DNA from: Paraspadella gotoi
Taxonomy: Eukaryota > Animalia > Chaetognatha
Assembly (NCBI GenBank): GCA_051294375.1
Contig: CM119267.1
Coordinates: 17,214,606-17,278,605 of the forward strand
DNA length: 64,000 nt
Direction of reading: 5' to 3'
Shown: piece after piece, positions 11,036 to 58,900 of the stretch
Layout of the letters: every line of letters starts with the position of its first letter
Position numbering within the stretch: the first letter of the stretch is position 1
Notes under the pieces: model-generated
Seen by the model: the letters and a program-made list of their open reading frames with translations, nothing else
What the model was told of the DNA's origin: nothing
Database searches by the model: none
Program-made: the position numbers and the translations under genes

Positions 11036-12985
11036 ATGGCGTCCTCGTCTTCCTTGTTGGGGCTCGTCGATCAGCTGCAGGGATTGGAGACGCAGTTTTC
11101 TCTCGTTTTGATGGAAGCTGCAATGAAAATTGCTTATTTCACAGGTGTGATACTTAAAAAAACTATTTCATTATTTACTTTTTTTAAAAAGTATATTATG
11201 CGTGTACTATTTTCCAGACATCAATTTGTTTCTTGTCATCGAGAACGCGGAGGGAAGATCGTGGGTGGGGCGGAACAGTTTAAAGGTAATGAGATTTCAT
11301 TTTATTACCCGTGTCTGTGGGGGAAAAAAAATTGTTAGTTTATATTCTAAATTATTTTGTCGAATGATTTTCTGTAACCTAAGGAGGAATTCGTGACGTC
11401 GGGACTCAGGGTGGGATTGAATGACATCCACTACGAAGTTGACCCGACCGTGACTGGGCTCGTGGCGCAGCCTTCGCTCGCCGCTCAAGGAACGAGCCTC
11501 GTCAGTCCCACGCCATTAAATGTCCAGAGCAACGGGCGAAAGGTCGGTATCGTCAGAGACAGGAGATTGTGGAAACGCTCCGCCGGATCAACGTTTAACG
11601 GTTAGTTTTATATCTCGTTATGTGTGTGTCTCTGTGTGTGTGTATCTACGTTATATGATGAAATACAATGTATAAAAATCAAACGCGTTGCCCTATGAGT
11701 ACTCGCGGAGCAAGTCACATATCTGTCTGTCGGCCGCTTGGTGTTTCATAACTGTCTATCACGTGATTATGTACAAAAGTGTGTACTAAGGTCAATGCGA
11801 CGCTATATATTGAAATTATCGTTTCTTTTTATGGAATTATAAAGACGACAGCCTGAGCAAACGGGCTCGATTGAGCGACGCGTCGCCCGAGTTTCCTCGT
11901 GGCGATCACTTGGACGACCCCGACACCTCGCCGCAAACCATCACCATCGATTGGGTTTTGGGAGAGGAAGACGCCGGGGATGGCGGCGGCCGTGGCGGCG
12001 CCAACGCCGGCGGATCCGACGTCGAGGAAATCGGCTACGACATCAAACCGGAAACTGAGTCGGCGTCGACGCGCGACGAAACGGCGCGGCTCCAATCGAC
12101 GGAGCGATTCGCTTCGGTCAACGAACTCATTCTCGTCAGTCGAGAGAAGCTCGACGTCATTCAAGGATTCGACTCGATAGATCTGACGGACAAAAGCTCC
12201 TTCATCTACAAACTCGTCAGCTCCGCTGGATACGACCTGGCCAAGCTCTTGGCGAACGTCTGTCCTTATCAGGTGAGAGGGCTATAATATGATTGAAAGC
12301 TTGCAGAAACCTGCTATGTTATTATCTGTAAGTGTGATGGAGGCCTTAAACCACCAAAGCCTGTCCAAAGTAGGGACAAGATAGCTTATGTATTAAATGA
12401 ATGGATAATTTTTATATTGGTTGTACCAATTTCATAAAATTCAGCTCCTTGTATTTTGATGCTCGTGCGGAGTACAATATAGTATTCCCGATCTAATACT
12501 TAAGGGAGTGGCTTTTCATACAATTGAAACATTCTTTGAAATATTATACCACTTCATTGATAGGGAAGCCAGGTTCACTGGGAGTGAATAAATAAGACTG
12601 TAGGAGAGTCTTGATTGAAAGCTTGCAGAAACCTGCTATGTCATTATCTTGTAAGTATGATGGAGGCCTTAAACCACCAAAACTGTCCAAAGTCAGGGAC
12701 AAGATAGCTTTTTATTAAATGAATGGATAATTTTTATATTGGTTGTACCAATTTCATGAAAAAAATATTGTAGATTTAACAGAATCTTTTTCTCTTTTCC
12801 AGGGCGAATATAAGGGTCCATCGGTTAACAAATGGATGAACGAGATGCTCGAAGAGTGGATTCAAAACTTTCCTAATCTAATCAAACACAAAACAATAAT
12901 TAAAAATCTTTTTGTCGGGAAGAACTTTCGAAAAGCCCGTCTACGAGTGCTTCGGAAAGAAGGGTACAAAATCGATATGGATTAA
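11036..12985 (+). CDS. Uncharacterised protein, ~5 exons, probably nuclear
   Basis: Exons ~11036-11144, 11218-11285, 11384-11600, 11845-12272 and 12803-12985 join in frame. Contains SKRARL (NLS-like) and a basic C-terminal helix (GKNFRKARLRVLRK). Confidence 0.65.
12290..12757. repeat. ~320-bp repeat family, ~1.5 tandem units in an intron
   Basis: 12290-12435 recurs at ~12612-12757 (period ~322 nt). The same unit occurs at 57998-58295. Confidence 0.9.
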
Positions 12986-34500: not shown

Positions 34501-37500
34501 GTCTACCATTCCTTGGTCCTTATGGGGCTGCCTCTCGATATCTGGATCTGGGTTGTACTATTCCTCCAGTTCCAGTAAGTTCTAATATGTATGTGGTTTC
34601 CATTTTTTATATCACACTAATAGTCTCAAGTTTCCTCATGAAAGATTATTAATGTATTTTTTTTAGGACTACCGAAGGATGGAGTCGATTCGCATCCAAC
34701 TCCCCTCAGTTTTCATCCTTGGTTATTGTTCGTTAAATACTACGAACTTAAGGTAGTTGTTATGAAGAAAGTAATGCATCATGAAAAATTCATGATTTTT
34801 CTTATGGGGGGTAAGTTTTAAGTCCGAACCCTGTATACAATGTATTCATATATATTAGACACATTTAAATCCGATTCTTTTTAAGATAGAAATCTCAGGA
34901 AAACGCCATTCTTTTCCTTTTTTTCCGTTCTATCTGAATATATGACTTTTTGTTAGACTTTTTAAAATTCTTGGCCTCCCCAGGAGCGCCAAAAGTGCCA
35001 CGAGCGTCAAAAATCACAAATATTCGTAGATTTTTTGACAAGTTCTATTTAAATTTAATTTTTTAATATAATTAGTTCATTCCTGACTAGAATATTGCAT
35101 TGCAAGTTAGTTAATATATTATAAAAATAGTTTTAGGTGCTTATTTGTTTGAAAACTATTTTTACAAACCGGAAGTCACCAAAACAGCAAAAAAATTTGT
35201 TCCAAAGATACAACTAATTTTATAAATTTGCTAGATATGTTATATGTTCTTTTTTATTATTTATTTCAAAAGTATAATTTAAATATTTTATTTAATTATT
35301 AGATATTGTTTAATTATGCAGACGCACAAGCCTTTTTACCTTAACTTTGACGTTTAAAATGGCTGATGAACTTTCATTGTATTTTATGTCAGATACCTAA
35401 ATCAATAATACCAATATATATTGTTATAATAGAGAAATATGGTCTAAAGACATTACAAAAAAAAAATTAAATGTAATCGTTGTTGTAAAAGACTTCATCT
35501 TTATTTCAAAACTCAATTTAAAAACCCAAAAAAAAAAAAAATATGCAAAGACAAACAATGAAAAAAAAGAGAAACAAAAAGTCAATCTCTTGAACCTTCT
35601 CTAAAATTGTGGTGTGGATGATCCCGACCACCACGGTCGCACAATGACTCCCCCGTCTCTACTCGCCGAGGCAGAGGGAGACCTCTGGAAAAGCAATAAG
35701 CAACCAATGCCCTCTAATCACCTGTAGCAACCAAATTTTAAAATCAGCATGGACAGGCCCTGGCCTACCTTACCTGAAAAGAGGGCAACTGGCAGGTATT
35801 TAAAGTCAAATTGAGTCGCACTAGATCTGTTCCTCACGGAAACATTACCTGACCCAGTGACCCACATATAACAGTTTAGTCGGTAAAGAAACTGAGGTTG
35901 ACTTGACCCTCTCATGACCCATTCTTATCGGTACTACCTTTTATTTGTCCACGTAGGGGTGGCTATCTTTATGTTGAGCTCTCTTTATTAATTTTATGTC
36001 TTATTATTTCCCTTCTATCTCTTATCTATTCTTATCTATCCTTTTATTTTTAATACAAAAATTTTTTGTATTAAATGAAATTGATTTAGTTAATGTTAGT
36101 TACTATTACAGTTTTTATAATTTTTTCAAGTTAATATTTTCTACATTTATATTTAATAAAATAGTTCTATTTTAAACAATTAACTGAACCTAAACATTCT
36201 TTTTCCTTCATTTCCTATTCACTCTCTCTCAATCTCAGTATTCCTGATAGTAATATACATCTTGAGATAAAAAGCTGCCTGTCCCAGAAATCAGGAATCC
36301 AGTATATCAAAAGTGACATATAGATAGAGCAATAAAAAATGAATCAAATGGTGGTCACCTATGATTTGTAGCTTTAAAGCTAGTTAAGAAAAATGTGTTT
36401 ATTGTCCGTGCTGATTTTAAATGAGGACTTGAGCTTTCCCCTTTATTCATCTGAAGCTGTCATTTGGGTTGACAACTTCTCTGAGGAGAGTCATAGTTGC
36501 GACAGGTGATTAGAGGGCATTGGTTGCTTATTGCCTTTCCAGAGGTCTCCCTCTGTCTCAGCGAGCGGAGACGGGGGAGTCATTGTGCGGCCATGGTGGT
36601 TGGGATCATCCACCACCATGATTTAGGGAAGGTTCAAAGGTTCAAGAGATTTACTTTTTCTTTATTCACTTTTTTATTTTTTTTGTTTTTAAATTGAGTT
36701 TGAAATAAAGATGAAGATGAACAACGATTACATTTAATGTTTTTTTTATAATGTCTTTACACCATATTTCTCTATTATAACAATATATATTGGTATTATT
36801 GATTTAGGTATCTGACATAAAATACAATGAAAGTTCATCAGCCATTTTAAACATCAAAGTTAAAGTAAAAAAGCTTGCGCGTCTGCATAATTAAACAATA
36901 TCTAATAACTAAATAAAATATTTAAATTATACTTTGAAATAAATGATAAAAAGAACATGTAACATATCTAACGAATTTATAAAAGTAGTTCGTAGCTTTA
37001 GAACTAATTTTTTGCTGTTTTTGATAACCTCCGGTTTGTAAAAATAGTTTTCAAACATAATAAGCACCTAAAACTATTTTTTAATATATTAACTAACTTG
37101 CAATGCAATATTCTAGTCAGGAATGAACTAATTATATTAGAAAATTAAATTTAAATAGAACTTGTTCAAGAAATCTACGAATATATGTGAATTTTGATGC
37201 TCGTGGCACTTTGGCGCTCCTGGGAAGGCCAAGAATTTTAAAAAGTCTAACAAAAGTCATATATTCAGATAGAACGGGAAAAAAGGAAAAGAATGTCGTT
37301 TTCCTGAGATTTCTATCTCAAAAAGAATCGGATTTAAATGTGTCTAATATATATACACTTTTTAAGGGCGGAAAAGAGTACAACGAATCCCCAGCTCGAA
37401 AACTTAGCGACTCTTACGGATTGGACATTGTCGCTGGTCATTCCATCACCGCGAAACATATTCTCCTATCGGGTAAGGTGGCGATGACAACTGTAAGAAA

Positions 37501-46514: not shown

Positions 46515-49500
46515 ATGGCGTTGATCGTCCGTCTCCGTCGCCTCGATTTGTTCGAAGCAGCGTCTGCTTCTTTTATCAAAGTCAAATTCCGCGGTACCGA
46601 GCAAATCTCCCGGATGTTAACGGCGCCGTCCTCGTCCGAAACCGGGATTGACGTAGACGAGGAGTTGCGATGGTCGTTGGATGGTCGCCCTTTGGAGGTG
46701 CGCATGGACTGTGGAGGCTGTACCTTTGCTTCGCTCTATATTAAAAAAAATATATTAAAATAAGATTAAATAATATAATTATAACCTTTAGAAAGAAACC
46801 CTGACGGTGACTGTGGTACAAGAGAGGAAGTTTTTAATGCGTAAGACCTTGGGACGTCATGTGCGGTACATCACCGCTGGCGAATTGGAAGGGTAAGTCT
46901 TTCTTGGGGCAATTCACAAGAAACGGAATTTATCGGTACCTCCCTCGATGTTGTCCTTTTTTACGTTTGTAAAATGTGGTAGATGCTTATACCACATGCA
47001 TCGTTTAGTACGCAAAAGCTTTAATTTAAATTTGGGTGACTTTTACTTTCGCCGACCGGAGTTAGGGAGGGGTTAGGGTTAAGAGTGGATTAGGGTTAGG
47101 GGTGGTTAAGGTTAAGGGTTAAGGTAATTAGGTAATTTTTTTTAAAAAAATACGTATTTTTAAGTAGTTTTTTAAAATCCGCCAAAACCGCGGTGGGCGA
47201 AAGTAAAAATTTAGCCTTGAATTTCTCTACATGCATTTTCAAAAAAATCACCATAATCAACGGTAAATTTCCCCCTGCCCCTAGCGGCGTTGAGGTGGCG
47301 GAAAAACTTCGCGACTCAGATGACGACGTTCTTCCGTCTACGATTTCTTATGGATTAGGTTTAGAAGAGGGAGCGAAAGATGGCGCTCCGACAGAGCGGT
47401 GAGTCTATCAAGGAACAAAAGACGTCGAAAAGGATTAAATAACTGACCGGTGGCGAAATCAAAGAGTCTTATAAAATGCATTATGGAATATAAAACTGTT
47501 CAAAACCTTATATACTGTTTTTCTGATTATTGAATATTTAATAAAGACCTAAACTTCGGCTAAAAGGAATTCTATGGCTCCACGCTCATCGGGTAACTCT
47601 ACCCTCGTACAAGAAGAGCGCATTCGCCCTTCCTCCTCTTCCAATGCCGCTTCTCCGGGCGACACCGAATCGTCATTAGACCCCGCCGGTGCCGCCGAGG
47701 CATTCAACGAAGGATCTCCTCTTCGTGGACGGAGTTTTAAACTCGAAGTGATCATTGTCGCTTGTCGTGATTTAAGGTTGTTATTCATTAATATTTATTG
47801 GACGTCTGGTGTGGTTAAATCTTTATTTACTTTATTTATTTCTTATTTTCCTTCTTGCCGTTCCGGTTTCTTTCTTTCATCTTTATGCTCTTGCTTCTTT
47901 CTTTCTTTCTTCTTTTTTCTTGCATTATTTCTATCTTTCTCAGACTTCTTCGCGCGTCTTCATCTGGAGACCTAAACCCCCAAGGCTTTGTGAGCCTGGC
48001 CGGAATCCGGAAAACGACTTCGACGGTGAAGTCGTCGACTTCGCCGAGATTCGCGGAGGAACCGATCGCTTTCGATCTCACGATGCCCTTTCGATCCTTG
48101 CTCGATCGAGTCGTCGAGGTGCGGGGGTGTGGGAGAGAAGAAATAGGAAGACAACGAGACAAGAAGATTGAAACAAAAAAAAATATATACCTATGACATA
48201 GGCTATGAAAAGATATGAAAACAGAGAATGAGGATCATGTTTAAAAAAATTTTTATTCGTCCGATGTCCCGAAAGTTTTTTTCCACGACGACCAAAAATG
48301 AGCTAGAAAGTTGTTTACGAGTTTTAACACGGTCTTCCGTAATATTCAAGGTTGGAATCGTCCATAAAGCGGAGGGAGTTTTGACGAAGGAGGAGACGAT
48401 CGGAATTTGCAAGATTGACATCGGGACTGTGGTAGAGGCAAAGGTCAGTTTTATGGCAACAGCCGGGTTACCTGTGATGCCCCTTGGGATGGGGCATCTC
48501 ACTGTTGGCTTTGCGGGCTTTCGACCCTCAGTGACGCCTCCAGTCACTGGCGCGGTTACCCTAGGACGTTCTCGCTTTGCCAACGCAGAGGGAAGTCATT
48601 AGGACTGTGGATGGAACACTACGCCTGGGATGGTGTGTTCCCCCACTGAGCCAATGGATTTGGCTGAAGGATGGAGGACGTGAGGCCTGGTGAATATACC
48701 GCCACAGATTCATCATAAGCTCTCGGGCTCGCGATTTTGAAGAAGCTCGATTAATTCTTGAAAATAAAAACATTTGTTAAAAATATGCATTTTTACGATC
48801 TATATCATTTCCAACGCTTCCGAAAGGGTCACGCGTTTCGGCGCAAGTGGATTATCCTTCATAAACCTACTGAAATGACCGCGGGACCCACTGGGTTCGC
48901 CAAAATAGGTCAGTTGAAACATCTCGGTGAGCCGCATTTGAAAAAATTGTCGAGAAAATGTGGCAATTCTATTTCGTTAGACATTTGCGTGAGCGGGTTC
49001 GGTTTGGAGCTCGCCGTGAGAGACGACAACGTCAGCGACCCCGACGACGACGATCACGACGACGACGATATTGAGGGCAATCTATTGATGCCACCTGGTC
49101 GCTTCTTCTCGCCCTCGCAACGCCCCGCCAAATACGTCGTCCGCATCTTCAGAGCGGACGGATTACCGAGGATGGACGCCGGGTGGGATTTGGGGGGGGG
49201 GGAGTTGAAAATTTGTTCATAGTTTGGGGAGGATCACGTTTGACTTTGGCGCTAGAGGGGGTAATACAAAATGTCGGCGAAACTGTCGATCACTCAGTGA
49301 AACACTACCATCTCCCCTTTTCAATTCATCCTCCTCAAAAGCCTCACCACTGGAGTGACGCGCGTCTTCACCGGGAAACAGGCCGACCTCGTGGATCCTT
49401 TCGTAGAAGTCTCCTTCGCCGGGGAGACGAGACTCACCTCCACGAAGGAAGGAACCTTCCGTCCGGAGTGGAACGAGCAGCTCGTTTTCGACGATTTGTT

Positions 49501-50496
49501 TCCTTCGCTGTGTCAAAGGATCAAGTTCCAGGTTTGGTGCGACCTTGTTTTGGAAGAGTGAATCAGTGATTCATTGAGACCTTTCACAATTCAGTTATTC
49601 GACGCTGACACCGGCGGAGATAGCGAATGCATCGGGACCCATTATCTCGTCATCGACGAAATAATGAACAATCGGTGATATTTCTTCTTAATATATATAA
49701 TATATAATATAATATATAATATATATAACAATCGACGAAATAATGAACAATCGGTGATATTTCTTCTTAATATGAGTTAAAAATTAAAGGCTCAGAGCTA
49801 ATTTATAACTTTTTTTTCGCTCCCAAGTTTCAACGGTTGGTTGCCCACCTTCGGCCCGGCTTTCGTCAATCTCTACGGATCCACGAGAGAGTTTTCCTTC
49901 AGCGAAGACGAAAACGTCTACCTCAACTTTGGCTTCGGAGAGGGTGTAGCTTATAGGGGAAGACTCTTGATTCAGGTCTGGATCGATGGGAGGAAACTGG
50001 AGTTATGATTTTGATGTAGAAGCCTCGTCAGAACTGGTTGTCGCCCCATATCGTTGCTTTTCGTTATGAATTCAAGGTGGACGTGATGGACAGCGGCGCG
50101 TTGGGCTCCTCTTCTTCCTCCTCTCCTCGAGAACCATGTTCCGCACCGAACCGCGATGTGATCGGAGAGAAGCAGTTCTTGTTGCAGGTGAACAATAACA
50201 AATAACGAAATATTTTGACAAAACTTTTTAAAATAATTTGGCCAAGTATACAGTATGAATTCTTGTAAAAAACTTTTTCGACATCACGGACAAATCATTG
50301 GCGACACTTTTGTATTTAAGATTTTTCAAAAAGTAGAAACAGAATTTTTGAATGAGGTAGGCAAAGCAAACAACCACTATCACAACAACAACAACAACAA
50401 CTTCTTTATTCAGGGCGTGTTCTTTGACGCTTCTATGATCCACCGAAGTCACGAGGGCAAAAAAGTCTCTTTCGAGATCAGCATCGGCGATGAGGG

Positions 50497-55900: not shown

Positions 55901-58900
55901 CGACTTTCAATTATAATATTTCAATGCAGTAAAACTGTTGCACTTCCACATCCTTTCCACATCGCCCGAACCCTCTTCTCAACACTCCCCTACCGACAGA
56001 TCTTCGATCGCAACTCTATGGTTGAGTCGGACCGTCTCGTCGGCGAAACCACTCTGGATCTCGAGGCGCGTCGCTTCACGCGCCATCGCGCCTCTTGCGG
56101 CCTCGCGCGGAAGTTCGATCTCACGGGTTACAACGCCTGGAGAGACGCCGAGCTGCCCTCGGAGATCTTGGCACGGATGTGCGATTCGCTGGGGATTGTC
56201 CCGCCGGTCTTCACGGCGGGGACGTTAAAAGTACGAAGCGTACAGAATTGTCAATAATATGAGATTATAAATATAAGATTCATTGATGTATTTACTTGCC
56301 AGTAAAATAATAATTATCAGAAATAACATAATTCTGGTAAAACTAAAAGCTCTATTTTTCCAAGACTTCTGCCTTCCCCAAAGGCGCAACGAAAGAAAAA
56401 GATTGAAAAGTAATAATTTTCACGATTTCAAAGTTATACTTTTGATTTTTTAAAAAATTATTTATTTTTAAATTTGTTCATTTATTTTTATATTAAATTA
56501 TCTATATATATTTATCTATTTATTTTTTCTTATTTATTTATTTCTCAGTTTTTTTTTTCATTTGTTTTTCTAATTTTGCCTGTTCTCTCCAGATCGGCCT
56601 CTTCTCCGTCGATTCCTCCGCCCTCTTTCCTCTCTACGGCGCTGAACGGCCCCAGCACCTCGAGGAGGATCGCCTGGCGTTGGAGGCGCTACACTCGTGG
56701 AGCGACGAGCGGCTGGGAGGGTTCCAACTCGTCCCGGAACACGTGGAGAGTCGCCCTCTTTATTTGCCTTCCAAGCCTGGGATCGAGCGCGGAAGATTGG
56801 AAATGTGGGTAAGTTCATATGTTGTTCGTTTGTTGTCACCGGGGGATTAGCTCAAATGGTAGAGCGCTCGCTTAGCATGCGAGAACTACTGGGATCGATA
56901 CCCAGATTCTCCATTGTCTTTTAATCTCTTTTGAAACGAATTGGCAGAATAGAGATAAGCATAAATCATTATGAGAATGACGTGGGATTAGCTCAAATGT
57001 TTGAGCGTTTTTTGAAAATTTATTAGAAGTTCCAAATCTTATCGAAAGATTAAAGATTAAAGTAATAAATTGTCCTATTGTTGAGTTTCCGCTATAGTAG
57101 TAAACGCTTGGTAAATGCACATTTTTTTTTTCCGGTTCGTCCAAGGTTGATACCTTCGACGCGGATCTCGGCCCGCCTCCGCCTCCGGTAGACGTGAAGC
57201 CCCGCAAACCGAAATCCTACGAGTTGAGATGCGTCGTTCTCAAAACTGAGGAGGTCGAGTTGACCGACAGCAATTTCGCGACTGGGGAGCAATCGGCCGA
57301 CATTTATGTCAAGGTGGGTCCTCGGCCCTTCATAACATTAGGGACAGGTATTTATATTTTTATCGTCGGGAAAAGATTGAAACTGAAAAAATGAATATGA
57401 TGAGGATCTTGGGGGATTAAATCTCTACCGAGTAACCTCTCGCCGATAATTTTCACATAATTAATTTCTTTCGATCGAGAAAAACTGCGACAAAACAACA
57501 ACTGACAATACGAAAGGAACCACACAGTATGTATGTATATTTGTATAACCAAAAACGAATAAGAAAAAAACCAAAAAACAACAAAAACTGAAAAAGAAAA
57601 AAACTTCTAAACCACAATAAAACAATGAAAAAAGAACAACAACACGAACAACAACAACAACAGCACAGCAACAACGACAAAACAACAGCCACGCCCACAT
57701 CCATCACCCCCTCCGCCTCCATCCAGGGATGGGTGATCGAAGACGACGTCCAATCGACGGACGTCCACTTCGCGTCCTTGACGGGCGAGGGCGACTTCAA
57801 CTGGAGATTCAAGTTTCGCTTCGATTATTCCGAGGCGGAGGAACGCGTCGTCGTCAAGAGGAAAGCGTCCGTCTTCGATCTGGACGAGACCGAGTTCAAA
57901 ACTCCCCCGCGACTCGTTTTGCAGGCAAGAGAGATTTTAACGATTTTCTCAGAGTAACATTTTTTTTATTTCTGAAATAAGATAGAAATAAGATAGATCC
58001 TTGTATTTTGATGCTAGTATTCCCCGATCTAATACTTCAGGGAGTGGTCTTTTCATACAATTGAAACATTCTTTGAATATTATACCACTTCATTGATAGG
58101 GAAGCCAGGTACTTTGGGAGTGAATAAACGAGACTCTGAGAGAGTCTTGATTGAAAGCTTGCAGGGACCTGCTATGTCATTATCTTGTAAGAGTGATGGA
58201 GGCCTTAAACCACCAAAGCCTGTCCAAAGTCAGGGGCAAGATAGCTTATTTATTAAATGAATGGATAATTTTTATATTGGTTGTACCAATTTCATAGAAT
58301 TAATTTTTTGTACTTTTTGCATTTATTTACATTAAAGATATCAAATCACAGGAAATGATCCTCATCCTTGCACTTTTTCGACTTCTCACTACTTCTCCTC
58401 TAACTCCTTTTTTTAAAAAAAAATATTTCTCTCCATCCTTTTTCTTCACGTTTTTTTTTCTGTCGTTCTCCTTCTCTCCTCGTTCCTTCTTCTCCTCCTC
58501 CTCCTCCTCCTCCTCCTTTCCAAGGTCTGGGATCTCGACGTCCTCACCGACGACTTCGTCGGCTCCGTCTCCCTCGACCTCAAACGCCTGCCGCGCCCGG
58601 CGCGGTCGGCGCGGCGCTGCGGACCGGAAATCCTCGACGGCGAGGACGCCGCCTTTGTCAATCTTTTCAAGACGCGGAGAGCGAGAGGATGGTGGCCTTT
58701 CATGGCGCCGGTAGTCGGATCGGCGCCCCGAACGGGGGCCGATTCGGTGCCGGGGACCGAGTCGGCGCCGGAAACCCCGACGGCGCCGTCGGCCAACGAA
58801 AACGGCGCTCGACGACGCCTCGTCGGAAAGATCGAAGCCGAGATCCACCTGCTCGACCTGGACGAGGCAGAACGCGGCCCAGTGGGTCTTCGGCGCGAGG

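Follow-up and report, generated by a model that had tools for sequence, protein, structure and literature searches.

An intron of a ferlin gene in the chaetognath Paraspadella gotoi holds a compact, stem-rich insert in which the elements of a twister ribozyme can be traced on the strand opposite to the gene. The locus raises the question of whether this resemblance reflects a conserved fold or an accident of one sequence, and of what kind of mobile element the insert is a copy. The window analysed was a stretch of 64,000 nt (contig CM119267.1, positions 17,214,606 to 17,278,605), and the features found in it are listed in Table 1.

Table 1. Positions of the features in the window, with the basis of each assignment.
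Feature	Position	Strand	Basis
Ferlin exon upstream of host intron	48351..48443	+	Coverage in run X9 equal to that of the next exon
Possible 4-bp target-site duplication, left copy	48448..48451	+	3/4 match, chance 0.068
Likely solo LTR (repeat copy of 255 nt) with imperfect inverted termini of 5-6 bases	48452..48706	-	Contig loose ends in three runs; termini from sequence
Hairpin 3' of ribozyme	48473..48501	.	One majority difference at 48483
Twister fold, type-P5 order, closed by P5 (6 bp)	48504..48584	-	24/27 pairs in this copy, 26/27 with majority letters
P3 hairpin, 7 bp	48529..48549	-	Both bases of one pair changed in one contig
Predicted cut site U^A	48557..48558	-	Homology to twister L1 (PMC8501958)
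P1 region, 8-base palindrome: hairpin of at most 2 bp + tetraloop; 8 bp between two copies	48559..48566	-	
Pol III box B-like motif, one mismatch	48609..48617	-	Sequence pattern
Pol III box A-like motif	48642..48653	-	Sequence pattern
Possible 4-bp target-site duplication, right copy	48707..48710	+	3/4 match to left copy
Ferlin exon downstream of host intron	48827..48904	+	Sequence and run X9 coverage
Second repeat family in tandem (period ~322), two P5 twister motifs, sense in intron	12290..12761	+	Self-comparison, descriptor, Rfam
Second repeat family, P5 twister motif at 58191-58234 with loopless P1 palindrome, same orientation as ferlin	57998..58296	+	Rfam Twister-P5

Host intron, insert limits and repeat family

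The host gene was on the + strand, and the host intron (48444-48826, 383 nt, phase 0) began with GT at 48444 and ended with AG at 48825-48826. A Pfam search of eight coding pieces gave a meaningful match for three, one of them DIX, from another gene. In a protein search with a dishevelled piece, the best named matches among the 120 listed had 74-79% identity, as for an animal that lacks a close named relative. The coding pieces downstream of the intron matched C2 (E 8e-07) and Ferlin_C (E 2.4e-15), and the two short exons flanking the insert had no Pfam match. The insert began 8 bases into the intron with its twister strand antisense to the gene, in agreement with the antisense placement in a ferlin intron proposed by the first-pass annotation. 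In run X9, which was guessed to be RNA, contigs lay on the repeat and on the exons, whereas the unique intron sequence was uncovered; coverage of this kind cannot reveal a unit-length RNA, its strand or its level.

The GC content of the insert was 57%, compared with 33% in the remaining intron. The island richer in GC that had been described was therefore present, but not over the ~280 nt to 48730 first assigned to it, as the insert was 255 nt long (48452-48706). An extension to 48730 was rejected, the depth being near flank level at 48710-48734.

Ten sequencing runs (nine of organism A; four studies in all) contained the stretch wholly or partly, and four of them were compared with the insert at 80% likeness: X2, X5, X9 and X10 (organism B). 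The matching contigs numbered 5393 in X2, 1867 in X5, 326 in X9, and 1 in X10. In X2, a run that may have the same source as the window, the summed depth was 1.0-2.0 million across 48460-48684 compared with 230-755 on the flanks, figures that do not equal copy number. Among the 19 of 534 rows listed, loose contig ends were found at 48451/48452 (60 + 48 contigs in X2, 44 + 59 in X5, 19 + 9 in X9) and at 48706 (23, 21, and 9 contigs, respectively), and the flank agreement at these ends was 0.42-0.51. Because the ends were clustered and the flanks diverse, the unit is about 255 nt long, has fixed ends, and lies at many different loci. Every listed joint (15 of 38) was a skip within a single contig. 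No head-to-tail joint of the insert family was found among these joints and the 12 of 29 variant-table rows listed, no 5' decay of depth was seen, and self-comparison of the 64 kb revealed no second copy in the window. The repeat family represented by the insert is non-coding and very abundant, and its copies have fixed ends. Pattern scans of viral contigs gave 0 matches in one scan and 16 in another, which extended at most 20 bases and were taken as chance; scans of metagenome contigs gave 0 matches in one and 1 in another, inside a bacterial reading frame, likewise taken as chance.

Several signs of subfamilies were visible in the contigs. Those ending at 48452 (48 in X2, 59 in X5) had a common flank majority containing G, unexpected for random AT-rich flanks, which may mark an inner-region junction or a subfamily end. 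The loose-end majorities behind 48617 (16 and 11 contigs; window positions 48613-48641) suggest a subfamily changed on both sides of a 7-bp stem joining the two promoter-like regions. A further subfamily had a short insertion near 48686.

Twister fold of the insert and its family

On the minus strand, from 48584 to 48504, the insert contained P5, P2', GA, T1', P1, U^AA, P2, T2, P3, P4, T1, T2', P4', and P5. The helices P5 (6/6 pairs), P3 (7/7), and T2 (2/2) were complete, and P2, T1, and P4 had one mismatch each. The named stems, the twister elements, the three mismatches, and U^AA at 48558/48557 were thus all where the first-pass annotation had placed them, although the stem that it listed separately at 48529-48549 was the ribozyme's own P3. 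The U^AA of L1 opposite GA and the L4 pattern were present, and no variant at or above 5% was listed there. The predicted cut lies 149 nt inside the 255-nt non-coding unit.

The order of elements was the same as in the type-P5 twister (Rfam RF02684, clan CL00120), i.e., P5-P2'-GA-T1'-P1-UAA-P2-T2-P4-T1-T2'-P4-P5, with the conserved GA, UAA, and L4 pattern. The insert differed from this model in having a P3, a mismatched inner P2 pair, and a score under the cut-off; moreover, P1 is a closed stem-loop in the model, whereas in the twisters of the window it is a palindrome with a loop of 0-2 nt.

A significant Rfam covariance score, one of the checks proposed earlier, was not obtained for the insert copy. 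The search, which scored window copies only, matched part of the twister-P1 model at 17 bits, where the cut-off is 67.2; E was 8.6 when 5001 bases were searched, 0.67 with 391 bases, and 0.17 with 101 bases. The P5 model was not reported for the insert copy, no twister reached the gathering level in the window, and no hammerhead matched the insert at E up to 10. The folding z of the insert was -2.06 and -2.13 on the two strands. A twister descriptor matched the insert copy with 3 mismatches, a level that shuffled sequences reached 9 times per 64 kb; with a tighter descriptor, written after the motif had been seen, shuffles gave 1.3 matches at 3 mismatches per 64 kb. Taken alone, the fold of the insert copy is not beyond chance.

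Variation within the family was more informative. Sixteen places varied at 5% of depth or more, and the family majority differed from the insert copy at seven of them (77-100%). Three of these, 48514, 48521, and 48569, belonged to the mismatched pairs of P4 and T1; with the letters of the majority, Watson-Crick pairs formed there, so that T1 rose from 2/3 to 3/3 pairs and P4 to 3/3. The remaining four differences were outside the ribozyme, and none of the seven broke a pair. When seven changes were drawn at random 2,000,000 times, 1274 of the draws had a net gain of 2 pairs. None of the nine minor-variant places fell in the 66-base core (P 0.048). The inner P2 pair was mismatched in the family majority too, leaving P2 at 3/4 pairs in both. 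One X2 contig (joint 48516-48583) was changed on both sides of one P3 pair. The variants are unlinked counts, and the covariation comes from variant tables.

Related copies with restored pairing were thus found, two of the three mismatched pairs being restored by the majority. Because the mismatches had been named before other copies were examined, the restoration amounts to a blind test that the fold passed. The insert family conserves a type-P5 twister fold, and the twister is very probably active in the family. The insert copy itself, having lost a T1 and a P4 pair and having no partner, is probably weak or inactive and removed whenever the intron is spliced; as a decayed passenger it carries little weight by itself.

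It is also conceivable that a young burst of repeats copied a twister-like sequence unable to cut, in which case the conservation would reflect recent amplification and not selection. The Rfam scores under the cut-off and the fixed P2 mismatch fit such a relic or mimic, as does the fact that within-family covariation came from one contig while most positions of the family, which is young, are near-invariant anyway. Against it, the double pseudoknot was fully paired in the majority as predicted blind, and a second family in the window had other letters in the same helices. We regard this explanation as very improbable.

LTR-type features and proposed mode of movement

The insert started with TG. 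Its 3' end was TA in the register of the possible duplication, and a CA end at 48454 would leave no duplication; the contig comparison hides differences near alignment ends. A flank match of at least 3/4 has a chance of 0.068, and other registers also nearly matched. In X2 and X5, the flank majorities gave a weak signal of the same four letters on both sides in the duplication register. The single X10 contig, from a run labelled as another organism, ran 2 nt beyond the 3' end into a GC-rich stretch whose start resembles a tRNA primer site. Among the contigs, we saw neither a copy with two LTRs nor an inner region or a polypurine tract.

Two motifs of the insert, both upstream of the ribozyme, matched the patterns of box A and box B, the latter with one mismatch, and the twister strand had no run of four T. 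An A box and a B-like box 30-60 nt apart occurred in 16 of 3000 shuffles and in 3 of 250 window tiles. No tRNA was called on the insert by ARAGORN or Rfam, and its alignment to the tRNA-Ala gene of the window was no better than that of shuffles (150 of 300 scored as well). This tRNA-Ala (AGC) gene was located at 56841-56913 on the + strand (52.6 bits), between ferlin coding pieces.

Elements with comparable parts are known from plants and animals. Helenus TRIMs (TRIMp3), small LTR elements of animals, carry tRNA-like A and B boxes inside the LTR; they are flanked by 4-bp duplications and also occur as solo LTRs (PMC10886601). The insert resembled them in the boxes within an LTR-like unit and in the possible 4-bp duplication, but its tRNA likeness was weaker, and the exact Helenus box B motif was absent. 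No ribozyme was described in the accessible part of the Helenus paper, where the word occurred once, in a reference title, and six short motifs from the window twisters were absent from one of its supplement files. Plant LTR retrozymes likewise have solo LTRs and 4-bp duplications, also in J. curcas (PMC4918200). The insert resembled these in having a ribozyme fold within what is likely a solo LTR from a small non-coding element, and in its possible 4-bp duplication; the primer site behind the LTR is only hinted at here. In contrast to the type III hammerhead and the LTR of ~330-350 nt in plants, the insert had an animal host, a twister, a length of 255 nt, and Pol III-like boxes; circular RNA has been shown for the plant elements (PMC4918200) and is a prediction for the insert family.

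The insert family is probably of LTR origin. Given the fixed ends and the absence of a head-to-tail joint among those listed, a solo LTR is indicated rather than a free-standing short mobile RNA. Of the short non-autonomous ribozyme-bearing mobile RNA envisaged at first, the short, non-coding, and abundant mobile family was borne out, but not its free-standing nature. The twister-bearing repeat was probably left as a solo LTR by an LTR retrozyme resembling Helenus.

The explanation to which we give somewhat better than an even chance is that the insert is the solo LTR of a mini LTR retrotransposon with a ribozyme in each LTR. Cleavage by the two would release an RNA of unit length, predicted to be circularised and copied by a helper. 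The full element would consist of an LTR, a short inner part, and an LTR; Pol III would start at the boxes of the first LTR and read on, as four consecutive T do not occur on the twister strand. Both LTR twisters would cut at U^A. The palindromic P1 barely closes as a hairpin, so that the two copies would likely pair with each other, full elements cutting well and lone LTRs poorly. As the cut RNA would lack a terminal repeat, ligation would turn it into a circle. A tRNA at the site behind the first LTR would serve as primer, and a Gypsy-type integrase would insert the copy with a 4-base duplication. This course follows the model put forward for plant retrozymes (PMC4918200). Solo LTRs would arise by recombination or from short cDNA. 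The circular RNA intermediate, taken by itself, is slightly favoured.

Second twister family in the window

Self-comparison of the window revealed blocks of a second repeat family at 12290-12761, 58015-58301, and 63729-63799, without real similarity to the insert (best E 2.2). Rfam Twister-P5 matched it at 58192 (25.8 bits, E 0.00044, cut-off 37.6) and at 12333 (15.3 bits, E 1.6). A descriptor for a P5 twister with a short palindromic P1 had four matches in the window, all in the two families, with 1, 2, 2, and 3 mismatches; it was written after both motifs had been seen, and ten shuffles gave 0, 0.2, and 1.3 matches per 64 kb at 1, 2, and 3 mismatches. The letters differed from those of the insert in P1, P2, T1, T2, P4, and P5, while the layout was the same and P2 was again mismatched. 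The twister at 58191-58234 had a majority-type core, with no variant listed in 58193-58235.

The second family was likewise very abundant and had 36% GC, a unit of ~322 nt, a fixed 3' end at 58295/58296, and a depth declining toward the 5' end. The contigs matching it numbered 25754, 7415, 1430, and 1 in the four runs. Head-to-tail joints were found in 6 of the 12 rows listed, of 220. An LTR nature was rejected for this family because of the 5' decay, the head-to-tail joints, and the missing primer-site-like start; it looks like a twister-based non-LTR retrozyme. On the twister strand, the same four terminal letters occurred in both families (48452-48455 on the - strand and 58293-58296 on the + strand), either from shared machinery or by chance.

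The earlier suggestion that the insert was tolerated because it is antisense found no support, since the second-family twister at 58191-58234 had the orientation of the ferlin gene itself, between whose coding pieces it lay. Two further ones were in sense in an intron at 12273-12800, and a single antisense copy cannot show orientation bias.

Animal non-LTR retrozymes are likewise 200-350 nt long and of high copy number, and their ribozyme has a stunted palindromic helix and cuts better when paired (PMC7229834, PMC7761336). They carry type I hammerheads and have no LTR, primer site or purine tract. The second family was tandem as they are, whereas the insert family had no tandem joints among those listed.

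The behaviour of the second family bears on a different origin of the insert, as a full-length non-LTR element (a tRNA-headed SINE or a Penelope-mobilised retrozyme) target-primed from circular or multimeric RNA. Such an element would behave as the second family does, and would agree with the four terminal letters and AT-rich flanks common to both families and with the X2 contigs, 108 of which stopped at the 3' end compared with 23 at the 5' end among the rows listed. Penelope-like enzymes are described as starting inside their own RNA and preferring AT-rich targets (PMC11167929). However, about 45 nt precede the A box of the insert, its 5' end is fixed, it lacked an A-tail and 5' decay, and none of the joints listed was head-to-tail; the X10 contig had a junction like a primer site, and a cut in the middle of the unit would destroy a monomeric SINE RNA. 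A non-LTR origin of the insert is therefore considered unlikely, and the solo LTR is retained as the preferred reading.

P1 palindrome and possible pairing of copies

For the insert P1, the hairpin was calculated at +2.1 kcal/mol and the duplex of 10-mers at -11.2 kcal/mol. For P1 of the second family, a 6-base palindrome without a loop, the values were +4.9 and -13.1 kcal/mol. No variant at or above 5% was listed in the P1 palindrome of the insert family. Axolotl retrozyme hammerheads with a helix of 1-2 bp and a palindromic tetraloop cut poorly alone and better as dimers (PMC7229834), and minimal Penelope hammerheads are likewise said to cut well in pairs (PMC7761336). Twister cleavage without P1 is possible (PMC6154101), though inefficient according to PMC8501958. 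As a twister can cut without P1, the pairing of two copies may not be needed; by analogy with the hammerheads, the chances that the twister depends on such pairing appear about evenly balanced.

If pairing is dispensable, the insert could still be the LTR of a mini-retrotransposon whose monomeric twister would only trim linear RNA, ending read-through or making a primer, with no circle and no pairing of copies. P1 has been reported as dispensable or tolerant, 2 bp and a tetraloop can be drawn for the insert P1, and Helenus is said, in the part of the paper seen, to move by ordinary LTR steps without a ribozyme (PMC10886601). On the other hand, the palindrome is conserved in the insert family, an independent loopless palindrome occurs in the second, and a doubly cut RNA would have no R repeat for strand transfer (an argument made in PMC4918200). 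We consider this variant improbable compared with the LTR element that passes through a circle.

A broader proposal is that one animal genome holds two twister-retrozyme architectures, a Pol III LTR type and a tandem non-LTR type, in both of which the ribozyme would be an obligate dimer with a P1 formed only between copies. This remains tentative, and we lean against it. If true, the P1 palindrome would be a safety catch: single copies would sit in introns of either orientation, and only two-copy transcripts would be cut and circularised.

Retrozymes have been described with hammerheads, as LTR forms in plants and tandem forms in animals (PMC4918200, PMC7229834). Twisters have been reported at the 5' end of RTE-type LINEs (PMC8501958; PMC7761336). 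Those of Schistosoma Perere-3 (PMC8501958) are likewise tied to an animal retroelement and have a weak P1; they differ in being of type P1, at the 5' end of an autonomous LINE, with P1 supplied by the target duplication, whereas the insert has the P5 form in the middle of a non-coding repeat. Neither a twister within an LTR nor a twister-based retrozyme or a dimeric twister was found in searches of open literature by title and start of abstract, or in passages of PMC6765202, PMC10085705, and PMC13725137; animal P5 twisters in repeats may be listed in the alignments of the 2014 discovery paper or in bioRxiv supplements. Among the papers listed for chaetognaths and ribozymes, none dealt with twister repeats by title or start of abstract.

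What this analysis adds is the blind test of pairing restoration for the insert family, together with a second family that is tandem, non-LTR, and in sense orientation. If one animal genome does hold a twister both in an LTR and in a tandem repeat unrelated to it, the retrozyme life cycle would be independent of ribozyme class, P5 twisters would gain a biological role, and Helenus-type elements with tRNA promoters would be linked to retrozymes. A twister needing a partner copy would be the first natural one, none having been found in the literature search.

Two other repeats were observed in the window. An inverted duplication of ~880 bases (34848-35731 / 36496-37354), 90% identical and with its arms 765 bases apart, is possibly a foldback element or a DNA transposon, and a perfect 43-base direct repeat was located within 49652-49773.
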